64,000 nt of DNA. Origin: Actinomycetota bacterium (GTDB lineage Bacteria; Actinomycetota; Thermoleophilia; RBG-16-64-13). Position numbers and translations under genes: made by a program. The notes under the pieces were generated by a model. The model was not told the DNA's origin, made no database searches, and saw only the letters and a program-made list of their open reading frames with translations. Below are positions 22,708 through 52,379 of the stretch, in pieces. The stretch is from positions 7,482 to 71,481 of the forward strand of contig JAHJSA010000023.1 in assembly GCA_018830645.1 (NCBI GenBank), in the 5' to 3' direction. Each line of letters opens with the position of its first letter. Position 1 is the stretch's first letter.

Positions 22708-22717
22708 TCGGCTCTCC

Positions 22718-24244
22718 TTAGTGGCCGACGCCGGCCGGCTTCACGCCGATGATGTCCATGGTCGTCTGGTCGAGTCCGAGCGCGCGCAGACGTTCTCGGC
22801 TGCCACGCAGGCTCTCGATGGCGTTCACCCCGACAGCTCCAAGCACCTCGGCGATCTCGTGACTCCACGCGCGGATCAGGTTGGACACGCGTTCGGCGCC
22901 CCACTCCGGATCCAGGCGGCGAGTGAGCTCCGGGCGCTGTGTGGTGATGCCCCACGAGCAGCAGCCCGTGTGGCACTTCTGACACACGTGGCAGCCCATA
23001 GCGACCAACAACGCGGTGCCCACCCCGCAGGCGTCGGCGCCGAGTGCGATGGCCTTGACGATGTCGGCCGAACTGCGGATCCCGCCTGCGGCGACGATCG
23101 AGGCGCGGTTGCGGATGCCCTCGTCGCGCAGACGCTGGTCGACGACCGCGATCGCGATCTCGATGGGGATACCAACGTGATCGCGGATGATGGTCGGAGC
23201 CGCCCCGGTGCCGCCCTTGAATCCGTCGAGGTAGACGATATCGGCTCCCGCCCGCACGACGCCGGACGCGATGGCGGCCACGTTGTGCACGCAGGCGATC
23301 TTCACCGAAACCGGCTTGTAGCCGGTGGCTTCCTTGATGGCGTAGATGAGCTGCCGCAGGTCTTCGATGGAGTAGATGTCGTGGTGCGGGGCAGGCGAGA
23401 GGGCGTCGGTGCCCTGGGGGATCATGCGGGTGGTCGAGACCTGTTCGTCGATCTTCTCGCCGGGCAGGTGGCCCCCGATGCCGGGCTTGGCACCCTGGCC
23501 AATCTTGATCTCCACCGCCGCGCCGGCCTGCAGGTAGTCGGCGTGCACGCCGAAGCGGCCCGAGGCGCACTGCACGATGATGTTGTCCTGGTAGGGCTCG
23601 AGATCGGCGTGTAGTCCGCCTTCGCCCGTGTTCATGAACGTGCCCGACGCCTTGGCCGCCATGGCCAGGGCCCGGTGCACGTTCAGCGACACCGACCCGA
23701 AGCTCATGCCCCCGAACACGATCGGGGTCTCCAACATCAGTTGCGGGTCGAGTTCGGTGAGGAGCTTCGGAGGCCCCCCGTCGCCGTTTCCATACCCCAC
23801 CACGATGGAGTCCGGCTTGCGGCCCAGGAACGTGCGCAGCTCCATGGGCTCACGCAGCGGGTCGATCGAGGGGTTGGTCACCTGGCACGCGTCGAGCAGA
23901 AGGTGGTCGAATATGCGCAGGTACGGCTTGTCGGTGCCCATGCCCGTGAGCAGCACCCCGCCTGTCTCGGCTTGGCGCCACACGGCCTTCCGCAGAGCTG
24001 ACGACATGCTGTCGGACTCCTTGTAGGCGAGGGGGTTCTTCTCGATGGTGATCGCGTCGGCCGGGCAGAAGGTGACGCAGCGATGGCACGCAGCGCACTT
24101 GGAATGATCGGGCATGGGGCGATCGTCGGCGTCGAGGTGGTACACACCCCAGCCGCACTGGTGCACGCAGCGCCCGCACTTGATGCACGCCTCGCGGTCG
24201 ATGCGCACTCGGAACTCAGGTCTGACGAAGGTCATCTCAGCCAT
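22718..24244 (-). CDS. Glutamate synthase FMN-binding large-subunit homologue with N-terminal 2x[4Fe-4S] ferredoxin domain (archaeal-type)
   Basis: N-terminal CIKCGRCVHQC and CAACHRCVTFCP ferredoxin motifs; FMN/TIM-barrel domain with DGFKGGTGAAP and the C-terminal Cys cluster for the 3Fe-4S centre. Confidence 0.8.
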   Translation of the reverse strand: MAEMTFVRPEFRVRIDREACIKCGRCVHQCGWGVYHLDADDRPMPDHSKCAACHRCVTFCPADAITIEKNPLAYKESDSMSSALRKAVWRQAETGGVLLTGMGTDKPYLRIFDHLLLDACQVTNPSIDPLREPMELRTFLGRKPDSIVVGYGNGDGGPPKLLTELDPQLMLETPIVFGGMSFGSVSLNVHRALAMAAKASGTFMNTGEGGLHADLEPYQDNIIVQCASGRFGVHADYLQAGAAVEIKIGQGAKPGIGGHLPGEKIDEQVSTTRMIPQGTDALSPAPHHDIYSIEDLRQLIYAIKEATGYKPVSVKIACVHNVAAIASGVVRAGADIVYLDGFKGGTGAAPTIIRDHVGIPIEIAIAVVDQRLRDEGIRNRASIVAAGGIRSSADIVKAIALGADACGVGTALLVAMGCHVCQKCHTGCCSWGITTQRPELTRRLDPEWGAERVSNLIRAWSHEIAEVLGAVGVNAIESLRGSRERLRALGLDQTTMDIIGVKPAGVGH

Positions 24245-24253
24245 GGCAGACCT

Positions 24254-25495
24254 CTACGCGACCGCGTTGTACGCGGCTGAGGTGGCAAGGTTGACGCCGT
24301 CTTCCAGCCGCGCGATAACCGGCTCACCGGCACGCGGCATCCAGGTGAGCTCGGGTTTCGGGCAGATCTCGCGGATCGCTGACTCCTCGCTGGCCACGTA
24401 CACGGTCGTGCCCATGCGAGCCGCGGCCAAGGGCCGGAGCTTGATGCGGTCGCTGAGGGCCACCATTCCCTCGCCCATGCCCAGGACGACCGCGAACGGG
24501 CCGTTGAGCAGCGCGGGCCCGTAGACCGCCCGCAGAGCGGTGTACAGCTGACGGTCGTCCTTCTCCATCAGATCGATGTCCTTCCAGAAAGGACTGGCCA
24601 GCGCCTTGCAGGCGATCTCGACCGACAGCCCATGGCGTCGCAGCAAGAGGTCGAACAGATACGTGACCACCTCGGTGTCGGTGCGCATCGAGCACTTGTA
24701 CCCGAACATCTCCAGGTAGCGCTGGTTGATGCCATACGAGCTGATCTCGCCGTTGTGAACGATGCTGTAGTCGAGCAGGCAGAAGGGGTGTGCGCCGCCC
24801 CACCATCCCGGCGTGTTCGTGGGGAAGCGACCATGGCCGGTCCAGGTCCAACCCCTGTACTCGTCGAGGCGGTAGAACTCGCCTATCTCCTCGGGAAACC
24901 CCACGCCCTTGAAAGCGCCCATGTTGCGCCCCGAAGAGGCGACGAAGGCTCCCTTGATGTGGTTGTTCACGTCCATGACCGAGTGGACCACGTAATCTTC
25001 GGCGCTCAGCTGCGTCTCGGCCAAACGCTCGTCGCTGATCTCGAGGAAGTATCGCCAGAGGATGGGCTCGTCTTCGATGCCGCGCACCGACTTCGACGGG
25101 ATCGGCTCGTGATGTAGGATCACGAAATGCCGCGCCAGGTAGTACTCGGTGTCGTCCTTGGCTACGTCGTCGTTGAAGAGCATGTGGAAGCAGAAGGCGT
25201 AGGGGAAGTCGGGATAGATGCCGTAGCCAGCGAAGCCTCCTCCCAAGCCGTTGCCACGGTCGTGCATCGAAGACATGCTGCGCAGAGCGAGCTCGCCGCT
25301 CATGCGACCGCCCGATTCGTCACACACGCCCATCAGTCCGCACCCACCCAGGATGCGTTCCTCGGCCTCGGCCGTGTAGGCCGGTCGCGGAACGAGGTCA
25401 CTCGAACGCGAACCTGGCGCGGGCAGCCCCCCGTAGGGGCGCCTGGCGCTCCGCCTGTCGGCCTCGCCGAATCGGTTGAGACCGCGCGCGCTCAA
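24254..25495 (-). CDS. Class-II (Ntn) glutamine amidotransferase subunit of archaeal-type glutamate synthase; possible N-terminal propeptide
   Basis: GATase-2 fold with nucleophile context G-C-G-L-M-G-V; the Cys is not directly preceded by a start codon; TTG at 25495 overlaps the upstream gene stop (TTGA), implying a ~46-aa propeptide if used. Confidence 0.65.
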   Translation of the reverse strand: MSARGLNRFGEADRRSARRPYGGLPAPGSRSSDLVPRPAYTAEAEERILGGCGLMGVCDESGGRMSGELALRSMSSMHDRGNGLGGGFAGYGIYPDFPYAFCFHMLFNDDVAKDDTEYYLARHFVILHHEPIPSKSVRGIEDEPILWRYFLEISDERLAETQLSAEDYVVHSVMDVNNHIKGAFVASSGRNMGAFKGVGFPEEIGEFYRLDEYRGWTWTGHGRFPTNTPGWWGGAHPFCLLDYSIVHNGEISSYGINQRYLEMFGYKCSMRTDTEVVTYLFDLLLRRHGLSVEIACKALASPFWKDIDLMEKDDRQLYTALRAVYGPALLNGPFAVVLGMGEGMVALSDRIKLRPLAAARMGTTVYVASEESAIREICPKPELTWMPRAGEPVIARLEDGVNLATSAAYNAVA

Positions 25496-31214: not shown

Positions 31215-32708
31215 CTATGCCGGCACGCCGGCCCCAGCGATCTCTTTGAGCGCCTCGGCCACCGCAGGCTCCAGCGGGATCGGCGCGTGCGTATCGGCCA
31301 CCTCCCAGGCACGGGCGCGGGCACGGGCCACAGGGTCATCGGTGCCCGGGTCCATCCGTGCCCGCGAAAGCAGCTGAGGCCGCCACATGAGGCGCGCGTG
31401 CCGCATCGAATGCTTGGTGGCGAGGAAGTGCCCTCGGGGACCCACCTGCGCAATCGTTTCGAGCGCCAAGGTATCGTCGTCGACTTGAATGGGGCGCGCC
31501 GTGAAGGTGAGGGCGTTCCACAACTCCACGCCCAGAAGTAGCTCCGCCGGATCGCACACCGTCGCATTCTCGAGGAGACCCGGCCCCACCATCGCGTCGG
31601 GCCTCGCGAGCAGTATCATCGTCCCGGTAAGAGCGTCTTCGAAGGCCGACTGCCAGCCCACCCGAGTCGAGCCGCAGGCCATGCCGCCCATGAGAGATGG
31701 CAGCTTGTAGAAGCGGGCCATAGCAGTGGCGGCATTGGTGACCATGGCTTCCTCCGGTGCTCCACCGGCCATGCGGCCGGTCAACGGGTCGAGGACGCTG
31801 GTCATGCAGCTGTAGAAAGCCCTGGCTCCGGGACAAACCAGCCCCAGCGTCGCCAGGGTGCCGATGATCTCCGCGTTCACGATCACCAGATTCCCGGCGG
31901 GACTCGCCGGAGCAGTTCCACAGGCGAGTGGCATCGACACGATGCCCACGGGCACGCCCGCCTCAGCGAACACGAACGCCGCCTCCAAGGCCTCACCCTC
32001 GTTGGCAAGTGGGCTGATGGAACACTGGAAGTTGGACATCACGGGGCGGCGGCGAAGCTCGTCGGCGCCGCCGGCCACGAGCCGCGCCATCTCCACGGCC
32101 GCGCGCGCCTGGTGGGGCTTGGTGACGGTCATGCACTGCACGTGCTTCCCCGTGTTGGCGAAGGTGGCCTCGAGCTCCCAGAGCGGCTGCCTCTCCACCG
32201 GCCGGTCCAGGGCGCTCACCATCTGCCACGCGAAGGCGATCTCTGGGAGGGCGTCGCAGATGCGGGTCAGAGCCGCCAGATCATCGTAGGTGGAATCCCG
32301 CCACTCCCCCGTGAACCGATCCACCATCAGCATGCCGCACCCGCTCGGGCCAAGGTAGGTGGTACAACCGTCCAGTGCCAAGTCGAAGCGCTCGTCGCGG
32401 GCAGCGAAGACGCAGTCTCGCGACAGGAACGAAAGCCCCTTCTCCACGAGCTCGGCGGACATGCGCACCCGGGTGCCTTCGACGCTCGCCCCGTGTTCAG
32501 CGAGCACCCCCAAGCCCCGCTCCCACGGGATGTCGAGCCCCACAGACCCAAGAACGTCCAAGGTGGCCTGGTGCACGCGGTGCACACCATCTTCGCCGAG
32601 CAGATCCAGCCGCGGCAGGTCGGTCGGCGGCAGGAACGCTCCTGGCTGGGAGCCGCCGGCTGCGCCTGCCGGCGCGGTCGACGGCGGCGGTCGGTAGTCG
32701 TTGCTCAC
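31215..32708 (-). CDS. MttB-superfamily methyltransferase without pyrrolysine (uninterrupted ORF; candidate quaternary-amine/methylated-amine:corrinoid methyltransferase)
   Basis: 497 aa, full-length homologue of the trimethylamine methyltransferase family, but no in-frame TAG at the position where the two neighbouring mttB genes carry it. Confidence 0.8.
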   Translation of the reverse strand: MSNDYRPPPSTAPAGAAGGSQPGAFLPPTDLPRLDLLGEDGVHRVHQATLDVLGSVGLDIPWERGLGVLAEHGASVEGTRVRMSAELVEKGLSFLSRDCVFAARDERFDLALDGCTTYLGPSGCGMLMVDRFTGEWRDSTYDDLAALTRICDALPEIAFAWQMVSALDRPVERQPLWELEATFANTGKHVQCMTVTKPHQARAAVEMARLVAGGADELRRRPVMSNFQCSISPLANEGEALEAAFVFAEAGVPVGIVSMPLACGTAPASPAGNLVIVNAEIIGTLATLGLVCPGARAFYSCMTSVLDPLTGRMAGGAPEEAMVTNAATAMARFYKLPSLMGGMACGSTRVGWQSAFEDALTGTMILLARPDAMVGPGLLENATVCDPAELLLGVELWNALTFTARPIQVDDDTLALETIAQVGPRGHFLATKHSMRHARLMWRPQLLSRARMDPGTDDPVARARARAWEVADTHAPIPLEPAVAEALKEIAGAGVPA

Positions 32709-32751
32709 GCCGTATGTCCTCCTTCGAGTGTGGGGCGATCAGGCCGTTGCA

Positions 32752-34158
32752 CTACAGCTCCGCATTGAGCTTCTTTCGGAGGGTTTCGACGGAGGCTATC
32801 TCCACCCCCAACAGCCTCCCGATGCGCGCCTTGGCCGCCAGGCCTCGGGCGGCGCCCGGCATCGCCGTCACCACGCCGATATCGAGCTCCTCACGCAGTT
32901 CTCGCATGACCACCTCGTCGGAGAGGTCGCTGACGCCGACTCCGAGCTTGCCGGCCACGAACGCTTTCGCCTCTGAGATCCGCATCTTGCGATGGAGTTG
33001 CATCCTGGCGACCAGATCTCCGGCCGCGCGGATGCCCCCCATCCCGGAGGCGAGCACGTGTGCCATGGGCATCCCTACGGGATCGCCCACGCCCACCTAT
33101 AACCCGTCCACGCGCCCGATCTCCACCATGGCCACGCTCGCTCGGGTCACGGCGTCCACCGGCGGGGTCTCGCACATGGGCACTCCCCCCACTCCCATGC
33201 CCACATTCGCGTGTATAGGGATGGAAGCGGCCTCGGAACAGGCCTTGACGAAGGTAACCGCCCGGGCGACGTTCCACGCACACGACCTGCGGGTGTTGGT
33301 GTTGACGACAGGGCCGAACACGGCGGCGCCCGCCTTCTCGACCAACTTCACCTGCTGGTGCGGATAGAGACCGGCCAGCCGCTCTCCCTTGTACGTGACC
33401 TCGCCGTGCATGCCGAGTACGAACTCGGCGGCCATACCCACCTGGATCGACAGGTGCGTGTTCGCGGAGAGCTCCTCGACCGCCAGAAGAGTGGCCAGGA
33501 ACTCGGCATCGCCCGCCGAGGCGGTGGTGTCGAAGTCCAGACCGTCTGCTCCGGCGTCTGCCATCTTCCTACCCACGTACACCATGTCGCGGGTGCAGGC
33601 CTCGGCCGCTGCCAGCTGCGCCGCTCGGGCCTCCTCGATCTTGCCCTCAGGGAGCAGATCAGAGGGGTTGCCGAACGGGCCGTCGGGCCGGGCGTAGGTG
33701 GCCAGGTTCGGCATCGCCCCGTAATACACGGGGATGATGGTGCCGAGTAGCACGCTCTCCATGCATTGCTGCTCGTTGGCGACGATGGGCTTCACGGGTT
33801 TGTACGAGTAGTCCGGGTGGCCGAGTTCGATGGTGTCGAAGCCGAAGGCGCGCTCGAAGAGACGGATGGCCTGTTCTCGCGACACCGGCACCCCGACGCC
33901 GCTGTCTCCCTGCTCGGCGTACAACGAACCCGCCACGCCGTCGTCGCTGAGCACGACCTCACGGCCGGGCTCCACTCCCACGATGCGCCCGGGATAGGCG
34001 AAGAGGTCGAATAGGTGGTCGCGCTCCTGCTCGGTGATGGTAGGGATACGCCCGCGGTCGGCCGCGTCTTCCGTGCCGGCCAGGATGTCGGCACGGACCT
34101 TGTCCGAGGACATCGCCTCAACGCGCCCATCGCCCATGCGCATGCGGTGGCTCGGCAT
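32752..34158 (-). CDS. mtbB: Dimethylamine:corrinoid methyltransferase MtbB, pyrrolysine-containing (in-frame UAG at 33097..33099)
   Basis: Two adjacent in-frame track ORFs (33097..34158 and 32752..33096) separated only by TAG; junction ...[33 protein letters not shown] matches the MtbB Pyl site; N-terminus MRMGDG..GDSGVG is also MtbB-like; ~468 aa in total. Confidence 0.9.
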
Positions 34159-35639
34159 CAGTTTCCTCCTTGGTTCCGGGCCGGACGGCCCAGGTGTTTC
34201 GCGATGACCGCCTCAGCTTCCGGGGGCAACGGCGCTACAGAGTGCTTGGCGAGGATCCTTCGGGCAACGGCGAGCGCCCGAGCGTGGGCGTCCTCACCCC
34301 CGCGCTTCTCCCAGGCGCCCCGCATGCGACGGTCGATCACCTGAGCCTCCGACTGCTCGCGACGAGCCAGTTCCCGGGTATGCCTCTCGCGCAGGAAGTT
34401 GCCATCGGACCCTACTCTCAGAATGGATTCGAGACCGATGGAGGCGACATCGCTGCGGATGCCTTCGAGCACCCGCCGGTTCATGCGTGCGATCTCGTCA
34501 TCCATCACCATCTGACCGAAGTCGAAGGTCAGGCCTAATTCGAGCATCCCCATGCCATAGATCAGGTTGGCCCCTGCCAACGCTGGTAACAGACTGGTGA
34601 GGGTCTTCTCGTGGCCCGCCTGCACGTCGGGTAGTTTGCTGTCTGCCTAACCGCCGGCCACCCAGCAGGGCAGGTAGTAGAACTCACTCATCTCGGCGAC
34701 GGCGGCGGAGATGAGGGCGAGTTCGGGAGCTCCGACGGGCGCAGTGGCGTGGCGCAGGTCGAAGGTGGTGGTGCTGCTGCCGTAGATGACCGGAGCCCCG
34801 GGGCGGGTGAGTTGAGCGAGCGTAAGCGCCGAGAGCACCTCCGCGTTGTGGGTGACCATGGTGCCGGACAGGCTGATCGGACCGGTCGCCCCGGCCATGG
34901 CCATGGAGATGACGTTCGAGGCGATCCCGTGGCGCGCGCACCCCATCATGATCTCCGGGGTGGGCGAGTAGAGGGCCAGGGGACTCGTGGGGCAGGTGTC
35001 GATGGAGAATATGGGGCGCTCGCGCAAGGCTTCAGCCCCGCCGACCACCGCTGCCCCGATCTCGGCGAGTTCATCGATCTGCTCTCCGGTCTCGACGCCC
35101 GCGTGCACGTGCTTCGTGGTATTGCGGAGCGCCGCGACGAAGCCCTCCAGGTAGGCGCTCTCGGAGGGCACGTCGGTGGGCGTCACCGCCATCTCGAAGG
35201 TATCGCACATCTCGAGGGCGTCGCAGAGCCGAGCTATGCGGGCGAGATCGTCCAGGGTGGAGTCCCGGTGCTCCCCCGTCTCGAGATCGTAGACTTTGGT
35301 GCCCTCACCGAAGTTGGTGTAGCCCACCGAACGGCCGCCCATGAGGTAGTCGCGCTCGCCATCCCGCGAGGCCAGGAGGATCGTGCCCGGAGCCGACTCC
35401 AGTGCCTCTTCAACCACGTTCCGGGGGAAGCGGACAATCCGCGTGTGGGTGTCCACGACGCACCCTGCCCCGTCGAGGACATCGAGCGCCTCGTCCACCG
35501 GCACCTTCACACCGGCCGTCTCGAGAACGACCAGGGTGGCCTCATGGATCGCTTCCCGACCCGCGGCGCCCAACACATCGAAGCTGAGCCGCGGTACGCC
35601 CGCTCGCTCCTCATCCCTCAGCTTCTCTCTCCACCCCAT
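34158..35639 (-). CDS. mttB: Trimethylamine:corrinoid methyltransferase MttB, pyrrolysine-containing (in-frame UAG at 34647..34649)
   Basis: Track ORFs 34647..35687 and 34158..34625 share a frame across a single TAG: ...[51 protein letters not shown]; ~493 aa from ATG 35639 (RBS AAGGAAGG), Pyl at ~331 as in MttB. Confidence 0.9.
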
Positions 35640-35644
35640 ATGCC

Positions 35645-36169
35645 TCAGGCCTTCCTTTCCAGAGCGGGATCTTCGGGGACTTCCCACATATAGCTGAACT
35701 TCTCGTTCCCCAGGATGGTGAACACCTCGGTTGAGAGAATGCTCCCGCCCGGCGCGAGCGGGCCGCCGAGGAACTCAAGGAGCTCCTCGCTTCCTCGGAA
35801 CACGGCTTCCACCAGGAGGTTATAACGACCGGTGCAGTACCCCACCCAGCACACCCGGTTGAGTGCGGCGAAGGCGCGGGCGACCTCCCGCAGATCGCCT
35901 GCGACAACATTCACGCCGATCATGACGTTGATGGGATAGCCGGTGGCCGCAGGGTCCAGCAAACCCACGATCTGCATCACTCCGGTTTCGTGCAACCGTT
36001 CGATGCGTTTGCGCACCGTGGGCACGGACACGCCGGTGGCCCGCGCGATCTCCGCGTTCGGCAGGCGTCCGTCGCTCTGCAGGAGGGCGAGGATCTTGCG
36101 GTCCAGTGAATCAAGGTGCTCCGGACGCGGCTCGCTCCTCCGATGCTCGTCCACCAGACCCCCAGTCAA
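35645..36169 (-). CDS. Lrp/AsnC family transcriptional regulator
   Basis: N-terminal HTH (LDRKILALLQSDGRLPNAEIARATGVSVPTVRKRIERL) and C-terminal RAM ligand-binding domain; directly upstream of mttB. Confidence 0.8.
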   Translation of the reverse strand: MTGGLVDEHRRSEPRPEHLDSLDRKILALLQSDGRLPNAEIARATGVSVPTVRKRIERLHETGVMQIVGLLDPAATGYPINVMIGVNVVAGDLREVARAFAALNRVCWVGYCTGRYNLLVEAVFRGSEELLEFLGGPLAPGGSILSTEVFTILGNEKFSYMWEVPEDPALERKA

Positions 36170-36293
36170 GTGAGCAATGACTTCGCCAACGTATCGTTAT
36201 CGCTTCGATAAGTCAATCTCAACATTGATTACCGTTTCGATAAGTACGTCGCCGGAAGGAGCTTCGTATGCCCGCGCGGCGCGGGCATCGGAA

Positions 36294-39585: not shown

Positions 39586-40833
39586 CTATCGCCTGAGCGA
39601 CGTCCGGCGGAGAGGCCACTGCACCCCGCCGCATCGGTGCGCACTACCCACCCCCGACTGGATCGCCTGGCGCAGACGCCCCGCGTCCTGCCGCGATCCG
39701 ATTACCACCGCCCCGACGACCCGCCCGTCGTGGAACCAGAGCGTACGACCGCGACCCAAGGCGGGGCATCCGATCACCCTCTGCTCCACACCCTCACCCA
39801 AGGATCGCAAAGCCTCTGAGCTCGTGCAGCCCATGAAGGCAACCCGCCGTTCAAACACCGGCAATACGTTGAACGGGATCTCACCCGAGAGCCTCGCATC
39901 GGCGCCCGCCATGTTGGCTCCTGCCACCGCTCCCTGAGCACACGCACTCGGCCAGGTGGCGAAGGCCTCCACCTGCCCGGTGACGGCGTGGCGCGTGAGC
40001 GCCGCGTCGCCGGCGGCGAAGACATTGGGGATCCCCGTGCGCATACCCGCGTCAACCGCCAAGCCCCGGTCGGCGCGGACACCGACGGGGGCGGCCCAGG
40101 CGGTGTTCGGCGCAGCTCCCTTGGCCGCGACACACAGATCGGCCGGTACGGCGTCGCCCCGGGTAGTCGTCAAGAATCGCCGCCTCCCGGCGTCCTCGAA
40201 GGCGGACGCACCGCGGCCAAGCAGGAAACGGATGCCTGCTTCCTCGAGCCACCCCTGCACTATCGTCGCTTCGCCGACCTCGGCATTCCGGCAGAGGATC
40301 TGATCGGACCGAGCAAGTACGGTCACCTGTTTCCCGAGCTTCCGCACCGCCATGGCGATCTCGAGCCCGGCGAGACCGGCCCCGAGAACGGCCACGCTCT
40401 CGGCTTCCTCCAGACGCCCCTGCAGGATCCGGGCGTCGGCCAAAGTGCGCAGAGTCAGGGGACCGTCGGCGCCGGTCGCTCCGGGCACCTCTTCTCCCCG
40501 GGCCGCCGCCCCCGTAGCGATCAGCAGCGTGGTGTACTTGATCGCCCCTCCCTGCTCCACCAAGACAGCGAGCCTCTCGAAGTCGACTCCGACCACCCGG
40601 GTGCCCGACACGAGCACGGCCTGGTGAGCGTCGTAGAAGCGCTGGTCGGCCAGGGCGAGGCCCTTCTCCTCGACCGTGCCCGCCAGCAGATAGGGCAGCA
40701 GAGCCGGGGAGTACGCCGGGCAGCACTCGGCCGTGACCACGATGATACGGCCCGCCTCGTCCCGACGGCGGATGGCCCGTACCGCGGCCAGACCTGCCGC
40801 GCCGGCGCCCAAGACCACGTAGGTCTCGCTCAC
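39586..40833 (-). CDS. FAD-dependent pyridine nucleotide-disulfide oxidoreductase (NADH oxidase / CoA-disulfide reductase family)
   Basis: N-terminal VVLGAGAAGLAAV FAD fold, second GAGLAGLE NAD(P) fold, and the CPAY-type motif (AECCPAYSP); GTG start at 40833 (residue 102 of the track ORF). Confidence 0.7.
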   Translation of the reverse strand: MSETYVVLGAGAAGLAAVRAIRRRDEAGRIIVVTAECCPAYSPALLPYLLAGTVEEKGLALADQRFYDAHQAVLVSGTRVVGVDFERLAVLVEQGGAIKYTTLLIATGAAARGEEVPGATGADGPLTLRTLADARILQGRLEEAESVAVLGAGLAGLEIAMAVRKLGKQVTVLARSDQILCRNAEVGEATIVQGWLEEAGIRFLLGRGASAFEDAGRRRFLTTTRGDAVPADLCVAAKGAAPNTAWAAPVGVRADRGLAVDAGMRTGIPNVFAAGDAALTRHAVTGQVEAFATWPSACAQGAVAGANMAGADARLSGEIPFNVLPVFERRVAFMGCTSSEALRSLGEGVEQRVIGCPALGRGRTLWFHDGRVVGAVVIGSRQDAGRLRQAIQSGVGSAHRCGGVQWPLRRTSLRR

Positions 40834-40873
40834 GTGCACGCACCTGTCGGCGCGTCTCCCCGAGGGGCGCGGG

Positions 40874-42727
40874 TCACCGCGTCGCCCCTTCCAGGTCGAG
40901 GGCGGCCAGCTTGGCCTCGGTGGGCCGTCCGTGCGTGTCCCAGCCTCGAGCCTCGTAGTACTGGGGCAGGAGGATATCCAGGCGCGGCAGATTGCCCTTG
41001 CTCGCGCCCGCGGTGAAGGGGGTCTCGAGCATCCGCTTCGGGAGGGTGTCGTCGGCGGCGGTGAGTCCGGCGCCCAGGTTGAAGAGGCGTTCCTGGTTGA
41101 AGATGCGCTCACCGGCCGCCAGGAAGCCCGCTTCACCCCCGAACGAGAGGCCGGTGGCCTTCTCCATCAGGTCGATGAAGACGCGGACGTCGGGCATCCC
41201 GATCACGATGAAGTTACAGATGCCCGAGGAGTCGATCATGCAGTAGAAGTCCTGGATCTTCTTGGCTACCTCAGCCTTCCCCTCCACAGCGAAGCGGTCG
41301 AGGTTCTCGCCGGTCTCGACAATGCCCAGGAGCGAGATGCCGAAGAACTCCACGCAGTGTACCTCTTGGCGGATGTGGCACGCGCCCCGGTTGGACGTGG
41401 CATACCCGAGGGCGAAGCCCTGCCCCCCGCGTGGGTCGTAGTTCGGGAACTCCTGCTTCTTGACGGTCATGCTGAGCTCGGGGTGCCCGTAGCGCTCGGC
41501 CAGGCGATACGAGCCCTCTGCCAGACTGTCGCCGAAGCCTTCCCGGCGGGCGATCTTCTCCAGGAGCTCCACCACGGCCGCACCATCACCGAAACCGAGG
41601 GGCCCACCGCTGTCGGACTCGGGGACAAGCCCCCGCTCGCTCAACTCCATGGCGCAGGCGATGGTCACGCCCGCTGAGATGGTGTCGAGGCCCATTTCGT
41701 TGCAGATGTAGTTGCTCTTCATGATCGCTTCGACATCATCGACGCCACAGACGGCCCCAAGGGAACCCAGGGTCTCGTACTCGGGACCTTCACCTCGTCC
41801 TTTGAACGGCCCGCTCTTGACCTGCGTCACCCGGCCACAGGCCAAGGGGCAGCCGAAGCAGGCTTTGGTCTTACCGACGCCCTTCAGGTTGTAGCGGGAG
41901 ACGGCGGTGCCCCCGATGGCGGCCGCGCCCTCGAATGTGCCCTGTTGGAAGTTGCGGGTGGGCAGGAGGCCCACCTCGTCGGCAAATTCGACCACGTCTG
42001 AGGTGCCGTACTCACCAACAGTGATTGACATGAAGGGGTCCTTGAACTCCTCGCGGGCGGCCCGCACCGCCGCCTGGAAGCCGGCCGGATCGGCCACCCT
42101 CACGCCGCCGCTGCCCCGCACAACGATGGCCTTCAGTCTCTTGGAACCCATGACGGCCCCCACACCTGAGCGCCCGGCTGCCCGGCCGCCGTCGTTCATG
42201 ACGGCCGCGAAGCGCACAAGGTTCTCGCCGGCCGGTCCGATGCAGGCCACCTTGGCCTCCTCGTCGGTCTCGGCTAGGAGCAGCTCGGTAGTATCGCTCA
42301 CCGCCCGACCCCAGAGGTCGCCCGCATCTCGGATCTCCACCCGGTCGTCGTCGATCCACAGGTAGACCGGTCTCGGCGAGGTGTTCTCGACGATGATCGC
42401 GTCGTAGCCCGCGAACTTGAGCTCCGCGCCGAAGTAGCCACCCGAGTTGGAGTTGGCGATGCCACCGGTGAGCGGCGACTTAGTGACCAGGGTGTATCGA
42501 CTCGAGGCCGGGGCCGACGTAGCCGTCAAGGGGCCGGTCGCGAACACCAGCTTGTTGTGGGGACCCAGCGGGTCGACCGTCGGGTCGACCTCGCTGAGAA
42601 GGTAGTGGATGCCGAGCCCGCGCCCCCCGATGGCCCGTTCGAGTACGGCGGTGTCTATGGACTCCGTGCGGGTGGTGCCCGCAGCCAGGTCGACCCGAAG
42701 TAGGCGTCCGATCCAGCCTGCCATCAT
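40874..42727 (-). CDS. Aldehyde:ferredoxin oxidoreductase (tungsten/molybdopterin AOR family)
   Basis: ~617 aa; AOR N-terminal domain (MAGWIGRLLRVDLAAGT...) and C-terminal pterin/4Fe-4S domains; ATG overlaps the stop of the upstream ferredoxin gene. Confidence 0.85.
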   Translation of the reverse strand: MMAGWIGRLLRVDLAAGTTRTESIDTAVLERAIGGRGLGIHYLLSEVDPTVDPLGPHNKLVFATGPLTATSAPASSRYTLVTKSPLTGGIANSNSGGYFGAELKFAGYDAIIVENTSPRPVYLWIDDDRVEIRDAGDLWGRAVSDTTELLLAETDEEAKVACIGPAGENLVRFAAVMNDGGRAAGRSGVGAVMGSKRLKAIVVRGSGGVRVADPAGFQAAVRAAREEFKDPFMSITVGEYGTSDVVEFADEVGLLPTRNFQQGTFEGAAAIGGTAVSRYNLKGVGKTKACFGCPLACGRVTQVKSGPFKGRGEGPEYETLGSLGAVCGVDDVEAIMKSNYICNEMGLDTISAGVTIACAMELSERGLVPESDSGGPLGFGDGAAVVELLEKIARREGFGDSLAEGSYRLAERYGHPELSMTVKKQEFPNYDPRGGQGFALGYATSNRGACHIRQEVHCVEFFGISLLGIVETGENLDRFAVEGKAEVAKKIQDFYCMIDSSGICNFIVIGMPDVRVFIDLMEKATGLSFGGEAGFLAAGERIFNQERLFNLGAGLTAADDTLPKRMLETPFTAGASKGNLPRLDILLPQYYEARGWDTHGRPTEAKLAALDLEGATR

Positions 42728-43203
42728 CGGTTCCCCCCTTCGAGGCGCATCTTGTCGGCCATTGCCCTGCGCTTGGCCCGCGGCGAGGAGTCCACAGCCG
42801 CGAAGTCGAGGGCTTTGGTAGCACACGCTTCGACACAGGCCGGGTGGCCGCCGCAAAGATCACACTTCCGCACACACCCCCGGCCGTCGTCCTCCACCGC
42901 GCCGAAGGGACAGGCGAGCGTGCACATGTGGCAGCCCACACAACGATCCCGGTTGAGGGAGACCACGTAGCTGCCATCGATCTCGGCGGCATGCATGGCT
43001 CCCGAGGGACAGACGGCCGCACAGGCCGGCTCGGCGCACTGCAGGCACACCTGCGGCAGAAAGAAGGCATCCTCGGTGAAGATGCTCACCCTCACCGCAG
43101 ACTTGCGCGGGTTGAACTCCTCGTAGTGGGCGAAGGAACACGCCGTCTCGCAGGAGCGACACCCCGTGCACCTGTCGACATCGATCACCAGCTGGTTCCC
43201 CAT
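42724..43203 (-). CDS. 4Fe-4S ferredoxin-type protein (multi-cluster; probable AOR electron-transfer subunit)
   Basis: Four Cys-x2-Cys-x2-Cys-x3-Cys-Pro-like motifs (CTGCRSCETAC, CLQCAEPACAAVCP, CVGCHMCTLACP, CDLCGGHPACVEAC). Confidence 0.7.
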   Translation of the reverse strand: MGNQLVIDVDRCTGCRSCETACSFAHYEEFNPRKSAVRVSIFTEDAFFLPQVCLQCAEPACAAVCPSGAMHAAEIDGSYVVSLNRDRCVGCHMCTLACPFGAVEDDGRGCVRKCDLCGGHPACVEACATKALDFAAVDSSPRAKRRAMADKMRLEGGNR

Positions 43204-43269
43204 CTCGAACCCCCTCCTCGCGGCATTATGATGAGATCGCACCGGCGCGCCGGCCGCGCATCATGTTGA

Positions 43270-46106: not shown

Positions 46107-46772
46107 CTAGGAGACGGCTTCCTTGGCCTTCGCCACCGTCTCGGTGGCGCTCTCGGCGTAGACATCCGCGCCGATCTTGTCGGCCCAGTGCTGGGTGGCG
46201 GCGGCGCCGCCCACCATCGTCTTCACATTCCCCCTGATGCCCGCCTCGGTGAGGGCCGCCTCCAACTTGGCCTGATTCACCATGGTGGTGGTCATGAGGG
46301 CCGAGCTACCCACCAGATCGGCGTTGGTCTCCTGCGCCATGCGGACGAATTCGCCGATGGCCACGTCGCGGCCAAGGTCATGCACCTCGAACCCGGACAC
46401 GCCGAGAAGCGTGCCCACGATCGTCTTTCCGATGTCGTGCACGTCACCTTCGATCGTGCCGATGACCACCGTGCCGAGCTTCTCGACCGCCGATGCTTCG
46501 GGCAGGGCCTCTTCCAGTATTGCAAGCGCGGCCGTCATGCAGTCCGCGGCGATGATCATCTCGGGAAGGCTCATCTCTTCCGCCTCGAACATCTCCCCGG
46601 CCCGGCGCATGCCCACCGTGAACCCTTCCTGCAGGAGCCGGACTGGATCTAGACCGCTCTCCAACGCATCCTTGGCCAGCTGTACCGCACCGTCCTCATC
46701 GATGTCGAGGACGAGCTCCTGCGCCTTCTGGATGGCTTCCTCCATGCTAAGTGTCGCCATGTACCGGTTCAC
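46107..46772 (-). CDS. mttC: Corrinoid (cobalamin-binding) protein, MttC-like
   Basis: B12-binding domain with DxHxxG (GDVHDIGK) and SxL / GG motifs; N-terminal corrinoid cap helix; immediately upstream of mttB. Confidence 0.85.
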   Translation of the reverse strand: MNRYMATLSMEEAIQKAQELVLDIDEDGAVQLAKDALESGLDPVRLLQEGFTVGMRRAGEMFEAEEMSLPEMIIAADCMTAALAILEEALPEASAVEKLGTVVIGTIEGDVHDIGKTIVGTLLGVSGFEVHDLGRDVAIGEFVRMAQETNADLVGSSALMTTTMVNQAKLEAALTEAGIRGNVKTMVGGAAATQHWADKIGADVYAESATETVAKAKEAVS

Positions 46773-47315: not shown

Positions 47316-48395
47316 TTAGCTGCCCGCAGTGTCCGAGTTCTCCGATGAGCCCCCAAGATGCGAGACCGATCGGATGACCTCAAGAACATCGCGGCGCTCG
47401 GTGTACATGATCACTCCACCGGCGATGACGATCAGGCCGCCGATCAGGAAGTTCAGGTCAGGCATGGTCAAGGTGAAGATGCCCAGGAAGATTATGGCGA
47501 ACACCCCGTAGAAATCGGCGATCGCCTGCCCGCGACCCACACCGATGAGCGGGAACGACTTATACCACGATACGTAGCAGAAGCCGAATGTCAGCCCGGC
47601 CAACAGCAACCACACGAGGTTCGTGAAGTGAAGCGCATCGACGAGCATCGTGATCGCATCGCCGCCGGTGAGGATCGCCGTGACCGGCAAGATGAGAACT
47701 ACCCAATAGAGAACCTCGGCCGTGAAGCGGATCGTGAGCCCCACGTCTGGGTCTACTACATCGAGCGCCCGACCGGCGAACGCGCCTTCGATACCCCAGC
47801 CCGTCGCAGCCATGATCCCGCCCACGTAGCCGAGCCACGAGCCGGTGCCCGTACCGGTCATCTCAGCGAGGATCCCCGGTGCGTAGACGACCAGACCTCC
47901 GCCAACGATCACCAGGATGCCGAGTGCCGCCCGGGTGGTTATCTTCTCTGCATACCAGACCCGGGCCAAGCCGGCGCCCACAATCGGATAGAGCAGGGCG
48001 GCAACAGCCGCGAAGACACCGCCAACGTAGCCGATGGCAAGAAAGCTACCGAAGATCGCCATGGGACCGCCGAAGACCGCTCCTGCGAAGAACCACTTCG
48101 AGACCTTGCGCATCTGCCGAATAGTCCTACCGTATTCCCGCATCTTGCCCAACACCGCAACCCAGACGTACATCGCGAGCAGCACAGCGATGGCGTTGAG
48201 CGCGGTGATAACCGCTGCCGCCATCAGGAAGTCCCTGGTTGTATCGGCGATGGCGTTGAACGGCGCTTCGTACCAGATCGCGGTGCCGGGCACGTACCAG
48301 GCACCCCACAGCACAGCGCACCACAGCGCCCACACGAACCCCCACCGCACCGACCGCTCGGTGTGATCCCTTCGTGCCTTCGTCAGATCCGACAT
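47316..48395 (-). CDS. Integral membrane protein (~10 TM), putative permease, possibly a methylamine permease analogue
   Basis: 359 aa, highly hydrophobic with repeated Gly-rich TM segments; inserted between pylC and the mttC-mttB pair; family not assignable from sequence alone. Confidence 0.55.
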   Translation of the reverse strand: MSDLTKARRDHTERSVRWGFVWALWCAVLWGAWYVPGTAIWYEAPFNAIADTTRDFLMAAAVITALNAIAVLLAMYVWVAVLGKMREYGRTIRQMRKVSKWFFAGAVFGGPMAIFGSFLAIGYVGGVFAAVAALLYPIVGAGLARVWYAEKITTRAALGILVIVGGGLVVYAPGILAEMTGTGTGSWLGYVGGIMAATGWGIEGAFAGRALDVVDPDVGLTIRFTAEVLYWVVLILPVTAILTGGDAITMLVDALHFTNLVWLLLAGLTFGFCYVSWYKSFPLIGVGRGQAIADFYGVFAIIFLGIFTLTMPDLNFLIGGLIVIAGGVIMYTERRDVLEVIRSVSHLGGSSENSDTAGS

Positions 48396-48412
48396 CTATC
48401 GACCCCCTTTCG

Positions 48413-48716: not shown

Positions 48717-49904
48717 TCAACGAGCACCTCCCCCTATCGACCCAGTCCGTACGCTCACCGGGTCAGGCGTCGCCGACAACCCGGAGTCGCGCGCGAGCCG
48801 GCGAACGGCCTCCTCCGCGCGGGCACGTGCGTCTACCGCGTCGACGCCTACGCAGATCATGGTGGCCGACCAGGTCTCTCGCCCCTCGGCACGGTCCGTG
48901 AGCACCTCGTCCGCGCCGAAGGCGTCTTCCAGGAGCCGCAGCGGCCCCGCCGTGCTCATCACGTGTTCCCCGAGAACCTCCAGGCTGCCCATGGAGGCGT
49001 GCACGTGTTGGTAGCAGACTCCACGACCGCCCGGGGGCAGTGAGCCGGGGAGACCGGCGCCACGTGCGATATCCGCGACCAACGCCACCACATTGAGTCC
49101 CGTGGAGTGCAGTACCGCGGTGGGCGTCTGGCTGGGTAGCCGCGCGTCGATCTCGATCAGCCGCGGAACGTCGCCGTCCAACATGACCTCGACGTCCATG
49201 AGACCCACGAGCCCCATGCGTTCGGCAAGACGCACCCCGGCAGCGGACATGGCCTCGAGAGACCCTCCGGCCGCGGTCACCGGAGCGACCACGCGCTTGC
49301 AGTCGTACACGTGGTCGAACTCGAGCAACGTGGGCACCAGAGGCAGCGCCCCATCCGGCGTCCCGATCACCTCCAACGACAGCGAAGGCCCGTCGACGTA
49401 CTGCTGCACGACGACTTCATGACCCGCGGTCTCGAGCCTCTCTCGAGCCGCTTCGAGGTCGCTCTCGGTCCAGACGACGCTCACCCCCTCGCTGCCGCTC
49501 GACCCGCTCGGCTTGACCACCGCGGGGAAGCCGCACTCGGGCCACGGTAGGGGCCGCGGAACATCCAGTTCGGCGAAGAGACGGTCGGAACGAAGCTTCG
49601 AGCAGGAGAGCTCGTAGGAAGGAAGGTGGAAGGCCAGAGGTACACCCCAGGACGGCACGACTTCGCTCAGCCACCGCAGGGTCTTCAGGTCTTCGCAGGC
49701 GGGCAGGATCACGTCGCACGCTCCGAGCACCACCCGCGCTCGTTTCACGTCGGCCGTGACGTCGAACACGTGGCTCTCTGTTGCCAATCCCGAGGCGGGC
49801 GTGGCGGGCGCCCTATCGACGAGGACAACCTCGAATCCAGCCTTGATGCCCAAATAGACCGCCTCGGTCCCTTGTAGACGTCCTCCCACGACGCCCAGGC
49901 GCAT
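48717..49904 (-). CDS. pylC: Pyrrolysine biosynthesis ATP-grasp ligase PylC (3-methylornithine--L-lysine ligase)
   Basis: Start VVGGRLQGTEAVYLGIKAGFEVVLVDR... and the IEIDARLPSQTPT motif match PylC; ATG overlaps the pylB TGA. Confidence 0.9.
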   Translation of the reverse strand: MRLGVVGGRLQGTEAVYLGIKAGFEVVLVDRAPATPASGLATESHVFDVTADVKRARVVLGACDVILPACEDLKTLRWLSEVVPSWGVPLAFHLPSYELSCSKLRSDRLFAELDVPRPLPWPECGFPAVVKPSGSSGSEGVSVVWTESDLEAARERLETAGHEVVVQQYVDGPSLSLEVIGTPDGALPLVPTLLEFDHVYDCKRVVAPVTAAGGSLEAMSAAGVRLAERMGLVGLMDVEVMLDGDVPRLIEIDARLPSQTPTAVLHSTGLNVVALVADIARGAGLPGSLPPGGRGVCYQHVHASMGSLEVLGEHVMSTAGPLRLLEDAFGADEVLTDRAEGRETWSATMICVGVDAVDARARAEEAVRRLARDSGLSATPDPVSVRTGSIGGGAR

Positions 49905-51001
49905 CACCACTGGGCCTGCGCCCTCAACCCCGGAGCCTGCGTCCCGGCGAGCCAGCCTTCGTACTCCGGCAAGGAGGCCACCTTCAACCCGAGGGGAGCG
50001 AGATGCCGCTCCACTCCGGCCACGGTACGGAAGCCCTCATCGATGTCGAGCGTTGACTGTGAGACTCCGGCCAGCCCGCTTGCGGGAGGGATGATGGATG
50101 TGACGACGTTGGCGCCCGCACGCAGGCGGGCCTCCAGACCCCGAAGGCCGTCGATGTCGAGAGAGGCTGGGATCAGGCGATCGGGCATGGTGAGCCGCAT
50201 GGTGGCTAAGGTGACCATCTCGGCCAGCAGGGTGGGCGTGTCGAGGCCGCCCATAGGAGTGCCCTTCTGGGGGACGAAGCCCATCACCCGCACCTGCTGC
50301 ACACCCTGCGCCCTCATGGTGACGAGGGAGCGCGCCCGGTCGGCGGCCGTCTCGCCCACACCCAGAAGGATGCCGTCTTCAGCGTGTAGTCCAGCGCCCA
50401 GGGCCCGGCTCCTCGCGCCGACACGCGCCGCGAAATCCTGCCCCGGCCGAAGCTTGCGGAACAACTGCGGTGAGTGGGTCTCCTGGTAGCAGGCATACCA
50501 GTCGGCCCCCGCCTCGGCGAGCTGCCGCAGCACGGCATCCGGCACCACGCCCGGAGACACCATCACCGGCACCCCTGCCGCTCCTCGGACGTCCGCCACG
50601 AGTTCCACCAGATGGTCGAACCGGCCGGCGTCGTGGATCTCCGGGTCCTCCCCCAGGGTCAGATCCACGAGGTGCACGCCCGAGCCGGCCAAGCCGCAGG
50701 CTATCTCGACCACCTCAGCCGCGGTCTTGCGGTACCGGGGACTCGCGTCGTTGCCCTTGCGGTAGAAGCAGAACGTACAGCGATTGCGGCAATACGTCGA
50801 GAAGTAGACGAAACCGTATAGAAAGATCTTGCGCCCGAAGTAGCGCTCCCTCAGTCTCTGCGCGGTGTCGAAGATGAGAGCGGCCTCATCCGGCTCCTGC
50901 ACTTCGAGCAGCGTCTCGATCTCGGGCACCCGGAGGCGTTCCCCCGCGAGCGCGCGCTCGACGATCGCTTCCACTTCCCGGCGTCGTGGCCGTCCGGTCA
51001 C
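49904..51001 (-). CDS. pylB: Pyrrolysine biosynthesis radical SAM enzyme PylB (3-methylornithine synthase)
   Basis: FVYFSTYCRNRCTFCFY radical SAM cluster motif; RLIPASLDIDGL...AGANVVTSIIPP matches PylB; GTG start at 51001 (residue 179 of the track ORF) preceded by a G-rich RBS. Confidence 0.9.
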   Translation of the reverse strand: MTGRPRRREVEAIVERALAGERLRVPEIETLLEVQEPDEAALIFDTAQRLRERYFGRKIFLYGFVYFSTYCRNRCTFCFYRKGNDASPRYRKTAAEVVEIACGLAGSGVHLVDLTLGEDPEIHDAGRFDHLVELVADVRGAAGVPVMVSPGVVPDAVLRQLAEAGADWYACYQETHSPQLFRKLRPGQDFAARVGARSRALGAGLHAEDGILLGVGETAADRARSLVTMRAQGVQQVRVMGFVPQKGTPMGGLDTPTLLAEMVTLATMRLTMPDRLIPASLDIDGLRGLEARLRAGANVVTSIIPPASGLAGVSQSTLDIDEGFRTVAGVERHLAPLGLKVASLPEYEGWLAGTQAPGLRAQAQW

Positions 51002-51012
51002 CTGCGAACCCC

Positions 51013-51900
51013 CTATTCCTCCGCGACCGGATGCGATCCCGGCCGGGTGCCTTGTACGTTGAGGCGCGCCCCGTCGAGGTACACGAGACTCCTCCCTACC
51101 GGGTGGATACGAGACCCACCCGTCTGCATCATGGCTAGACGCTCGAGGCCGAACCCCCACCCGGCCCACGGACCGTTGACGCCCCACTGCTCGTCGAGTG
51201 GGTGCGGTCCGACGACGCCTGAGGCCACCTCGATGCCGCGCACCTCCACATCGAACGTCGCGCCATATACGCCGGAATCGGTCTCGACGATCTTGTATTG
51301 CAGGCCCAGGGGCCTCATGGCGACATCGGCCAGCATCCGCAGGCGATCGGCGGGGTCGCCGCTCGGCTCGAACTCCACAAGGTTGAGCATGGTGAACTCC
51401 GAGAGGTGGTTCGAGCCCTTCGACTCCTTGCGGAAACAGGGTCCCACTTCGAAGATGCTCACGGGGGGCGGCCATAGCCGTTGGAGGTGACTGAGCAGGT
51501 AGTAGAGGTTCGGTGCCAGCATCGGGCGCAGGCATCGGTCGGTGTCGACCCAGTACACCTGGCGCCAGAGCGGGTGTACTTCACCGATCCCCATCTTCGC
51601 CAGGGCGCCCTTGCTCATCATGAGCGGCGTGGCCACCTCGACGAAACCATCCGCCACCAGCGCCGCGACCAAGACCGACTCCACCGTGCGCAGCACCGGG
51701 CGTCGCCTCTCGGTGCGCAGAGAGTCGAGCCGATCGACGTTCGCCTGGCTGAGTTCCCGATGGTTCCCCTCGTAGCGGGCGTCGCGCTCCTCAGCCGAGT
51801 CGAACGTGTCGGCCAGCGCGGCATCGTCAAGCCCGATCTCGGCTAAGCGCTGCCTCTGCTGCGGCGAGAATCCGAGTGCGATGTCTCCCTGGCCTATCAC
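51013..51900 (-). CDS. pylS: Pyrrolysyl-tRNA synthetase, C-terminal catalytic subunit (PylSc)
   Basis: Class II aaRS motifs conserved with PylS: CLRPMLAPNLY, FEVGPCFRKES, EFTMLNL, GPHPLDEQWG, GFGLERL; GTG start overlaps the pylSn TGA (GTGA). Confidence 0.9.
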   Translation of the reverse strand: MIGQGDIALGFSPQQRQRLAEIGLDDAALADTFDSAEERDARYEGNHRELSQANVDRLDSLRTERRRPVLRTVESVLVAALVADGFVEVATPLMMSKGALAKMGIGEVHPLWRQVYWVDTDRCLRPMLAPNLYYLLSHLQRLWPPPVSIFEVGPCFRKESKGSNHLSEFTMLNLVEFEPSGDPADRLRMLADVAMRPLGLQYKIVETDSGVYGATFDVEVRGIEVASGVVGPHPLDEQWGVNGPWAGWGFGLERLAMMQTGGSRIHPVGRSLVYLDGARLNVQGTRPGSHPVAEE

Positions 51901-52262
51901 ACGAACGAGGTGCTCTCGAACTTCTCGAGCTTCCAGGATGGTATACGGCACCGCGGACACGGCTCGTCGTAGATCTTGTTGCGCAGATGACGGGCGACCC
52001 GACTGTTCCGGGAGTTCCGCATGCGGATGTCATGCCCGCAGTGCGTCTGCAACTCCACGAACCCGCCCCTGAGCTTCACCGAACGGACGCCATGCAACAG
52101 GCCGGTCTTCGACGGCCACAGCTTCACCTTCTCGATCACCCCGTAGGGGGCGGCATGCCGCCGCACCGTGCGCTTCTTCGCGCCGGGGATAGGAGCCAAG
52201 ACCCAGTCGGGCAGCTTCCCGCCTGTCCCAACGTCTCCGTTCGTGGAGCCGACCACGTCCAC
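51897..52262 (-). CDS. pylSn: Pyrrolysyl-tRNA synthetase N-terminal tRNA-binding domain protein (PylSn)
   Basis: 121 aa; LQTHCGHDIRMRNSRNSRVARHLRNKIYDEPCPRCRI closely parallels the Zn-binding region of the Methanosarcina PylS N-terminal domain; GTG start 45 nt downstream of pylT. Confidence 0.85.
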   Translation of the reverse strand: MDVVGSTNGDVGTGGKLPDWVLAPIPGAKKRTVRRHAAPYGVIEKVKLWPSKTGLLHGVRSVKLRGGFVELQTHCGHDIRMRNSRNSRVARHLRNKIYDEPCPRCRIPSWKLEKFESTSFV

Positions 52263-52307: not shown

Positions 52308-52379
52308 TGGAGGAGAGTCCGGGAGTCCAACCCGGCTACGAAGATTTAGAGTCTCCGCGGTCATGCCGACCAACCCTCC
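52308..52379 (-). tRNA. pylT: tRNA-Pyl (CUA anticodon) gene pylT
   Basis: Minus-strand 72-nt sequence GGAGGGTTGGTCGGCATGACCGCGGAGACTCTAAATCTTCGTAGCCGGGTTGGACTCCCGGACTCTCCTCCA folds with a 7-bp acceptor stem, single U8, a 4-bp D stem with 5-nt D loop, a 6-bp anticodon stem, loop CU-CUA-AA, a 3-nt variable loop and a 5-bp T stem. These are the hallmark atypical features of tRNA-Pyl. Confidence 0.85.

Follow-up and report, generated by a model that had tools for sequence, protein, structure and literature searches.

We have analysed a stretch of 64,000 nucleotides from an Actinomycetota bacterium of the Thermoleophilia (lineage RBG-16-64-13; assembly GCA_018830645.1, contig JAHJSA010000023.1, positions 7,482 to 71,481), hereafter the window, to which all coordinates refer unless another locus is named. 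Our subject is an operon on its minus strand (36243..31215), lrp-mttB-mtbB-mttBlike, comprising a gene for a regulator of the Lrp/AsnC family, copy 1 of the trimethylamine:corrinoid methyltransferase gene mttB, interrupted by an in-frame TAG that we read as a codon for pyrrolysine (Pyl), copy 1 of the dimethylamine methyltransferase gene mtbB, and a further gene of the MttB superfamily. Between consecutive genes lie a gap of 5 nt, a 1-nt overlap and a gap of 43 nt, respectively, and the next gene is convergent. The first gene, lrp (35645..36154, minus strand; Pfam and the contig's gene call), encodes 169 aa from a GTG start and is followed by mttB copy 1 (34158..35639, minus strand). A preliminary description of this DNA had placed the regulator gene 3 nt upstream of the mttB ATG: the adjacency stands, but the gap is 5 nt (ggcat), from the TGA at 35647-35645 to the ATG at 35639. 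The downstream layout given there, mttB-mtbB-mttB-like, is correct.

The mtbB gene (32752..34158, minus strand) matches Pfam Dimeth_Pyl (1.8e-152) and Rfam PYLIS_2 (91.4 bits), carries an in-frame TAG of its own (33097-33099, codon 354) and shares one base with its neighbour, the mttB TGA and the mtbB ATG overlapping as TGATG. The last gene (31215..32708, minus strand) encodes a 497-aa non-Pyl member of the MttB superfamily, which scores 349.6 bits against TIGR02369, under the cut-off of 525, has no TAG and presents Ala at the Pyl column. Among solved structures, glycine betaine methyltransferases (9yce/2qne) are its closest relatives, so its substrate is probably a quaternary amine. Three corrinoid protein genes and, as a candidate MT2 partner, one gene of the MtaA/CmuA family are present in the window, none of them inside the lrp operon, which has no corrinoid protein gene of its own; the corrinoid partner would therefore be encoded elsewhere in the window, and the mttC-like protein beside mttB copy 2 (46107..46772, minus strand; Pfam B12-binding and B12-binding_2) is a likely partner for the MttB of the lrp operon.

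The product of mttB copy 1

When the minus strand is translated from 35687 to 34158, a single frame is obtained whose sole internal stop is the TAG at 34647-34649 and which closes with a TGA at 34160-34158, as expected if, as the preliminary description had it, two open reading frames (ORFs) of one frame are joined by a single TAG. Read from the ATG at 35639, the start also chosen by the contig's gene call, the gene encodes 493 residues including Pyl331, the TAG being codon 331; the earlier estimate, an MttB of about 493 aa with Pyl near residue 331, was thus exact, and the equivalog score, the active-site residues and purifying selection agree with it. A Shine-Dalgarno-like element, GGAAAGGAAGG (35650..35660, minus strand), read from the sequence, lies inside the 3' end of lrp and ends 10 nt before the ATG.

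Both halves of the joined product form one continuous match to Pfam MTTB (PF06253) that spans positions 30-491 of the 500 in the profile (E 1.3e-88), and the product scores 629 bits, against a cut-off of 525, with NCBIfam TIGR02369, the equivalog of Pyl-type MttB. Its best solved-structure match is the MttB of Methanosarcina barkeri (PDB 7xcl/7xcm; E 9e-112). In Pyl-MttBs, Gly110 and Tyr364 are 100% conserved and Met249 is the gate residue (PMC9842639); all three are retained here, as G111, Y361 and M246. Judged from its sequence, mttB copy 1 is a genuine Pyl-type trimethylamine methyltransferase, with a predicted activity. Compared with the M. barkeri enzyme, with which residues 29-474 of the 493 align, the UAG occupies the same column, and the genome likewise encodes corrinoid proteins, MtbB, MtmB and pyl genes, as do those of M. 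barkeri and the TIGR02369 members. In contrast, here the host is bacterial, with 65% G+C, Thr111 is replaced by Glu, there is no adjacent mttC, the operon starts with lrp and also contains mtbB and a non-Pyl homologue, and TAG is a very common stop codon of the host.

The in-frame TAG and the pyrrolysine machinery

The in-frame TAG (34647..34649, minus strand) aligns with X334, i.e. Pyl334 of M. barkeri MttB, in the 7xcl segment VAGSXSDAKVPDDQAGHEKT. The preliminary description had named a TAG outside the conserved Pyl position as the finding that would speak against it, and the codon instead coincides exactly with the pyrrolysine of a solved MttB, which is far beyond chance. A TAG at the codon equivalent to 331 is moreover kept in five related loci (L001, L004, L005, L006 and L015), four of them metagenomic orthologues with 86-89% identical proteins and the fifth, L001, a Thermoleophilia metagenome-assembled genome (MAG) with 64-68% identity, while the neighbouring codons differ synonymously. 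Starting at this TAG, Rfam PYLIS_3 (RF02510) matches the sequence (34550..34649, minus strand) with 85.4 bits, against a gathering threshold of 38. No stable RNA structure 3' of the mttB UAG was seen, the folding energy of 34540-34660 being no better than that of shuffled sequences (z +0.76); we have therefore rejected the match as a recoding RNA structure, and it probably represents conservation of the coding sequence.

Sixteen kb away, the pyl cluster (47316-52379) has the order pylT-pylSn-pylSc-pylB-pylC on one strand, the minus strand. It comprises pylT, a tRNA-Pyl with anticodon CUA (52308..52379; ARAGORN); pylSn, a separate N-terminal subunit of the bacterial type (51897..52262; TIGR03912, 101.5 bits against a cut-off of 51); pylSc, the catalytic subunit of pyrrolysyl-tRNA synthetase (51013..51960; TIGR02367, 283.6 bits against 178); pylB (about 51040..49904, the start being approximate; TIGR03910, 439.9 bits against 348); and pylC (49910..48717; TIGR03909, 311.7 bits against 248). 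A split PylS is the bacterial arrangement (PMC9630628). Besides mttB copy 1, four further Pyl genes occur in the window, each with TAG at the Pyl column of its family and each with a match to an Rfam PYLIS family: mtbB copy 1, mttB copy 2, mtbB copy 2 and mtmB, the in-frame TAGs of the last three lying at 45077-45079, 53823-53825 and 58234-58236. The same codon ends many genes: among 44 confidently identified genes of the window, TAG is the stop codon in 20, TGA in 19 and TAA in 5, which makes UAG strongly ambiguous in this organism. Several of the Pyl genes themselves, and pylSc, terminate in TAG.

The Lrp/AsnC regulator and its orthologues

The lrp ORF opens at 36154/36169, and the start chosen lines up with the ATG/GTG of the orthologues. 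At its N-terminus the protein has an AsnC-type helix-turn-helix (HTH) domain (PF13404, 65 bits against 27), and at its C-terminus an AsnC_trans_reg/RAM domain that scores marginally (PF01037, 26.4 bits against 25). An AlphaFold (AF2) model, with a mean pLDDT of 69, shows three helices at residues 16-56 followed by a beta-alpha-beta-beta-alpha-beta arrangement at 75-147; the top Foldseek matches of this model are all full-length Lrp/AsnC regulators (E 1e-14 to 1e-8), and a profile search of the PDB retrieves PH0140, FL11 and AldR (E 3e-33). On the strength of its sequence and its modelled fold, lrp is taken to encode an Lrp/AsnC regulator with a marginal but real RAM domain.

Database searches gave eight orthologues of lrp, with 77-99% identity. 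In all those whose context is readable, mttB(TAG) begins 4-10 nt past lrp, and mtbB(TAG) comes next where the contig extends. A loop motif of the RAM domain, TGxxD (residues 108-112 in lrp), reads TGRYN in the mttB-linked orthologues, and TGRHN in one of them. TGxxD is found both in Lrp/AsnC relatives of solved structure and in the paralogous clusters described below, and the change of Asp to Asn in the mttB-linked group is offered as a lead only.

A putative operator and promoter

The 139-nt spacer between carB, the gene upstream, and lrp contains two 15-bp palindromes of the 6-3-6 type (TTAYCGAANCGRTAA) whose centres are 32 bp apart. Candidate box 1, TTATCGAAACGGTAA (36229..36243, minus strand), lies upstream of a putative -35 hexamer, TTGACT (36211..36216, minus strand), while candidate box 2, TTATCGAAGCGATAA (36197..36211, minus strand), is a perfect palindrome that fills the spacer between this hexamer and a putative -10 hexamer of the form TAnnnT, TACGTT (36188..36193, minus strand), 17 nt past the -35. 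Box 1 matches TTAYCGAANCGRTAA without mismatches in four of five distinct orthologous promoters and with one mismatch in L015, and box 2 holds the 32-bp offset in L004/5, L006, L007/8 and L015. The alignment of orthologous upstream regions has TTGAC, TTGAG or TTGGA at the -35, this TTGAC-like hexamer overlapping the start of box 2, and TACGTT, TACGCT, TAGGCT or TACGAT in the column of the -10; apart from these elements, a GGGGG ribosome-binding site and the start codon, the upstream DNA is little conserved. By analogy with other members of the family, the two-box layout is the usual geometry of Lrp-type autoregulation, box 1 lying one protein-dimer step upstream of box 2.

Searches for the operator elsewhere were negative. 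The exact pattern has no other copy in the window; allowing up to 3 mismatches, no convincing site lies upstream of mttC/mttB2, mtbC, mtmC, pylT/pylS or the TetR gene; none was found in the 16 kb to the right of the window; and up to 2 mismatches in 476 kb of other loci returned only the promoter of the L015 orthologue and one chance match. A wider regulon was accordingly rejected, there being no operator copies at other methylamine or pyl genes. The preliminary description had proposed looking for Lrp-box-like palindromes both in 35640..35700 and upstream of lrp. The former stretch has no inverted repeat and was discarded as a place for Lrp boxes; it is the 3' coding end of lrp, where no operator is expected. 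The region upstream of lrp holds the two palindromes, at 36197-36243.

Relatives of the regulator in other loci

Metagenome contigs were scanned with an alignment of Lrp homologues, flanking genes were identified by tblastn and the Lrp sequences were clustered; the description that follows covers the best 80 of 182 confirmed matches. Many contigs are short, so the neighbour counts are minimum counts, and they come without a formal background rate. The mttB-linked orthologues form one cluster. Next to it is a cluster (51-54% identity) that adjoins Pyl-mtmB and a corrinoid gene. In a sister cluster (42-53%; L009-L011, L013, L018, L020, L022, L023 and L026), a DUF2284 gene is nearly always next, L021 being the exception, and genes for MttB-family proteins, aldehyde:ferredoxin oxidoreductase (AFOR), iron-dependent alcohol dehydrogenase (Fe-ADH) or EamA often lie nearby. 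A larger cluster (37-46%) includes several members that adjoin Pyl-mtbB or another lineage of Pyl-mttB, and three other clusters have no such neighbours in the available DNA. The TTAYCGAANCGRTAA box is absent upstream of the DUF2284-linked and mtmB-linked relatives, where TTACAT-type repeats are found instead.

In L016 (12-240) and L019 (3258-3487), the mtmB-linked lrp is preceded by another Lrp-like gene, of which the 3' end is present, so that the two are tandem Lrp paralogues.

Discussion

We favour, with a probability of about 0.8, the reading that lrp-mttB-mtbB-mttBlike is an operon whose Pyl-MttB is decoded by the pyl system of the window, and whose Lrp regulates its own expression through the two palindromes in response to a small-molecule ligand. 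In this scheme, the tRNA-Pyl and the split PylSn/PylSc would decode UAG331 of mttB in competition with termination, and Pyl331, together with Gly111, Met246 and Tyr361, would make up the site at which trimethylamine is activated so that a methyl group can pass to the corrinoid protein encoded elsewhere in the window. At its own promoter, Lrp would bind boxes 1 and 2, which are separated by three helical turns, and would control a single transcript, that is, itself and three methyltransferase genes. Because box 2 fills the promoter spacer, autorepression relieved by the ligand would be the favoured sign of regulation, and activation through box 1 may be the alternative; possible ligands are methylamines, related nitrogen compounds and amino acids. 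The proposal, already made in the preliminary description, that lrp is a candidate regulator of the mttB-mtbB-mttB-like operon gains support from the kept lrp-mttB linkage, from the conserved operator and promoter, and from relatives of lrp that lie beside other Pyl genes.

Several observations weigh against this reading: (i) The nearest genome with this mttB, that of the Thermoleophilia MAG L001 (1698-3476), has no lrp and carries instead a divergent PucR-type regulator at its mttB-mttC-mtbB cluster, which means that the regulator has been swapped between lineages. (ii) The closest solved relatives of lrp bind amino acids, not amines. (iii) As no operator was found beyond the lrp promoter, the regulon seems limited to the lrp operon. 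(iv) A scan with consensus models detected neither a sigma-70-type promoter nor a relevant terminator, so that our assignment of the -35 and -10 hexamers draws on cross-locus conservation only. (v) We did not find pylD after pylC, in the unannotated ORFs of the window (NCBIfam scan) or in the right flank, of which about 16 kb were covered, the expected place after pylC being taken by an EamA-type transporter gene (48395..47316) and an ORF of 127 aa with no family matches; the DNA searched thus contains only part of the Pyl pathway. (vi) With TAG ending 20 of the 44 confident genes, UAG must also terminate efficiently in this organism.

The rival that survives best concerns the ligand. Lrp could sense an amino acid and act as a general regulator, of the feast/famine type or of nitrogen status, its position next to mttB reflecting nitrogen or amino-acid control or a wider regulon. 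Such a role would be in keeping with the ligands of its solved homologues (PH0140, which has been solved with Ile, FL11 and AldR), with the glnA and glutamate synthase genes of the window, and with the 37-46% identical relatives, most of which have no methyltransferase neighbour in the available DNA. It is at odds with the linkage to mttB(TAG) in every close orthologue that could be read, where the upstream gene is variable, with an exact operator restricted to the promoter of lrp itself, with the separate sub-clusters beside Pyl-mtmB, Pyl-mtbB and Pyl-mttB, and with the TGRYN that replaces TGxxD throughout the mttB-linked group. We consider it an unlikely explanation of the locus.

Far less probable is that the TAG is a true stop and mttB copy 1 a pseudogene, or a gene for two polypeptides of 330 aa and, from the GTG at 34625, 155 aa. 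Gene callers do divide mttB copy 1 into ORFs of 330 and 155 aa, TAG is the commonest stop codon of the window and pylD was not located. Against this, the TAG holds the exact Pyl column and is conserved across loci whose proteins are 64-88% identical, and the TAG is separated from the GTG by seven conserved codons (ADSKLPD) that belong to the active-site segment. Among the related loci, the C-terminal part past the TAG is conserved as much as the N-terminal part, and the ratio of nonsynonymous to synonymous substitution (dN/dS) is 0.10-0.12 ahead of the TAG and 0.16-0.22 past it; conservation and low dN/dS on both sides make a pseudogene or two polypeptides very unlikely. In addition, pylT, pylS, pylB and pylC are present, and Actinobacteriota MAGs from Stordalen Mire have been reported to express Pyl-type mttB and mtbB (PMC10805028), in a study that does not discuss regulators. 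Finally, although carB lies 139 nt upstream of lrp on the same strand, a functional tie of lrp to carB (arginine/pyrimidine), with an accidental mttB adjacency, is ruled out, since the gene upstream of lrp varies from locus to locus (carB here; a Pyr_redox oxidoreductase, a glycoside hydrolase, small ORFs or mttC elsewhere) while the lrp-mttB linkage remains intact, and a strong GC-rich hairpin just past the carB stop (36263..36293, minus strand; 15-nt arms, 87% complementary; -25.9 kcal/mol, z -2.6; no U tract) separates carB from the lrp promoter.

Beyond the autoregulated operon that we favour, the comparative data raise a bolder possibility, which we put forward tentatively and with some doubt: lrp may belong to a branch of the Lrp/AsnC family, so far undescribed, that is devoted to operons of Pyl methylamine methyltransferases, with mttB, mtbB and mtmB sub-branches, and that senses a methylamine or a related ligand that is not an amino acid. 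Since separate sub-branches are linked to each of the three Pyl methyltransferase classes, coincidence is less likely than a dedicated role. If this were true, lrp would be the first identified transcription factor over bacterial genes for Pyl proteins and, where UAG ends nearly half of the genes, would help to confine the cost of an ambiguous codon to the times when methylamines are present.

The lrp operon can be compared with three kinds of known systems. With Pyrococcus horikoshii FL11 (2e1c) and PH0140, Mycobacterium tuberculosis AldR (4pcq) and Escherichia coli AsnC/Lrp, the regulator shares the HTH and RAM architecture and the same type of palindromic operator of 13-15 bp, with two sites, whole helical turns apart, at its own promoter (putative in our case). 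It differs from them in that identity is only 23-33%, that it is promoter-proximal in a catabolic methyltransferase operon, that TGRYN stands in place of TGxxD, and that its ligand is perhaps not an amino acid. The Thermoleophilia MAG of locus L001, FR_37, has the same pair of mttB(TAG) and mtbB(TAG), with 64-76% identical proteins; in contrast to the present operon, a corrinoid gene lies between the two, and the regulator is of the PucR type. In Acetohalobium arabaticum, the use of Pyl is reportedly substrate-dependent, UAG being kept as a frequent stop codon and Pyl used only for methylamine methyltransferases, so control of expression is to be expected; to our knowledge, no regulator has been identified in that organism. 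Here, by contrast, there is a candidate regulator with an operator, for the methyltransferase operon and not for the pyl genes.

The Pyl-type MttB family is already well characterised, and Pyl-mttB has been published for Actinobacteriota. Modestly new are the conserved lrp that heads the operon with a putative operator of its own, and UAG as the commonest stop codon in the window. We found no paper tying Lrp/AsnC regulators to mttB or to pyrrolysine. Few bacteria use pyrrolysine: in a survey of 2022, PylRS was present in 81 bacterial genomes, only two of which were actinobacterial (PMC9630628). The locus bears on the question of when bacteria make Pyl proteins in genomes in which UAG stops are frequent. 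To this it contributes a concrete candidate regulator with a putative pair of 15-bp operators and a putative promoter, and the comparative data suggest that regulators of this type are found repeatedly next to each of the three Pyl methyltransferase classes in environmental bacteria, which may compete with methanogens for methylamines.

Other features of the window

With a G+C content of 65% throughout, the window, part of a metagenomic contig of 218 kb, otherwise carries the genes of an ordinary chromosome: leuS, uvrB, coaE, rpsA, polA, glnA, a split glutamate synthase and carB. A scan of species-representative genomes gave a single relative, a Thermoleophilia MAG; together with the G+C content and the gene order polA-rpsA-coaE-uvrB, which is typical of Actinomycetota, this makes an uncultured actinobacterial host probable. 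At 18448-25495, glutamate synthase is split in the archaeal style into separate GATase_2, Glu_synthase and GXGXG genes, and glnA and an additional Glu_synthase-like gene adjoin them. Just past the right edge of the window lie a third Pyl-mttB and another non-Pyl MttB (L095, 14784-16247).

The MtaA/CmuA-family gene (52458-53486; 323 bits against 244) resembles the subfamily of methylcobamide:coenzyme M (CoM) methyltransferases and occurs in what is apparently a bacterium; the methyl acceptor could be tetrahydrofolate, CoM or another compound. mtbB copy 2 ends in a TAG (53489-53487) whose frame continues without another stop into this downstream gene, and read-through of that TAG by Pyl-tRNA would fuse both proteins; the arrangement could be due to chance, which for the frame is 1 in 3.

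Upstream of the lrp operon, at 39586-43260, are genes for a tungsten-type AFOR, a 4Fe-4S protein and a PadH-like pyridine-nucleotide oxidoreductase, and the same oxidoreductase set, with an AFOR that is 91% identical, adjoins the orthologous operon in L004/L005 (L004, 1-7500).

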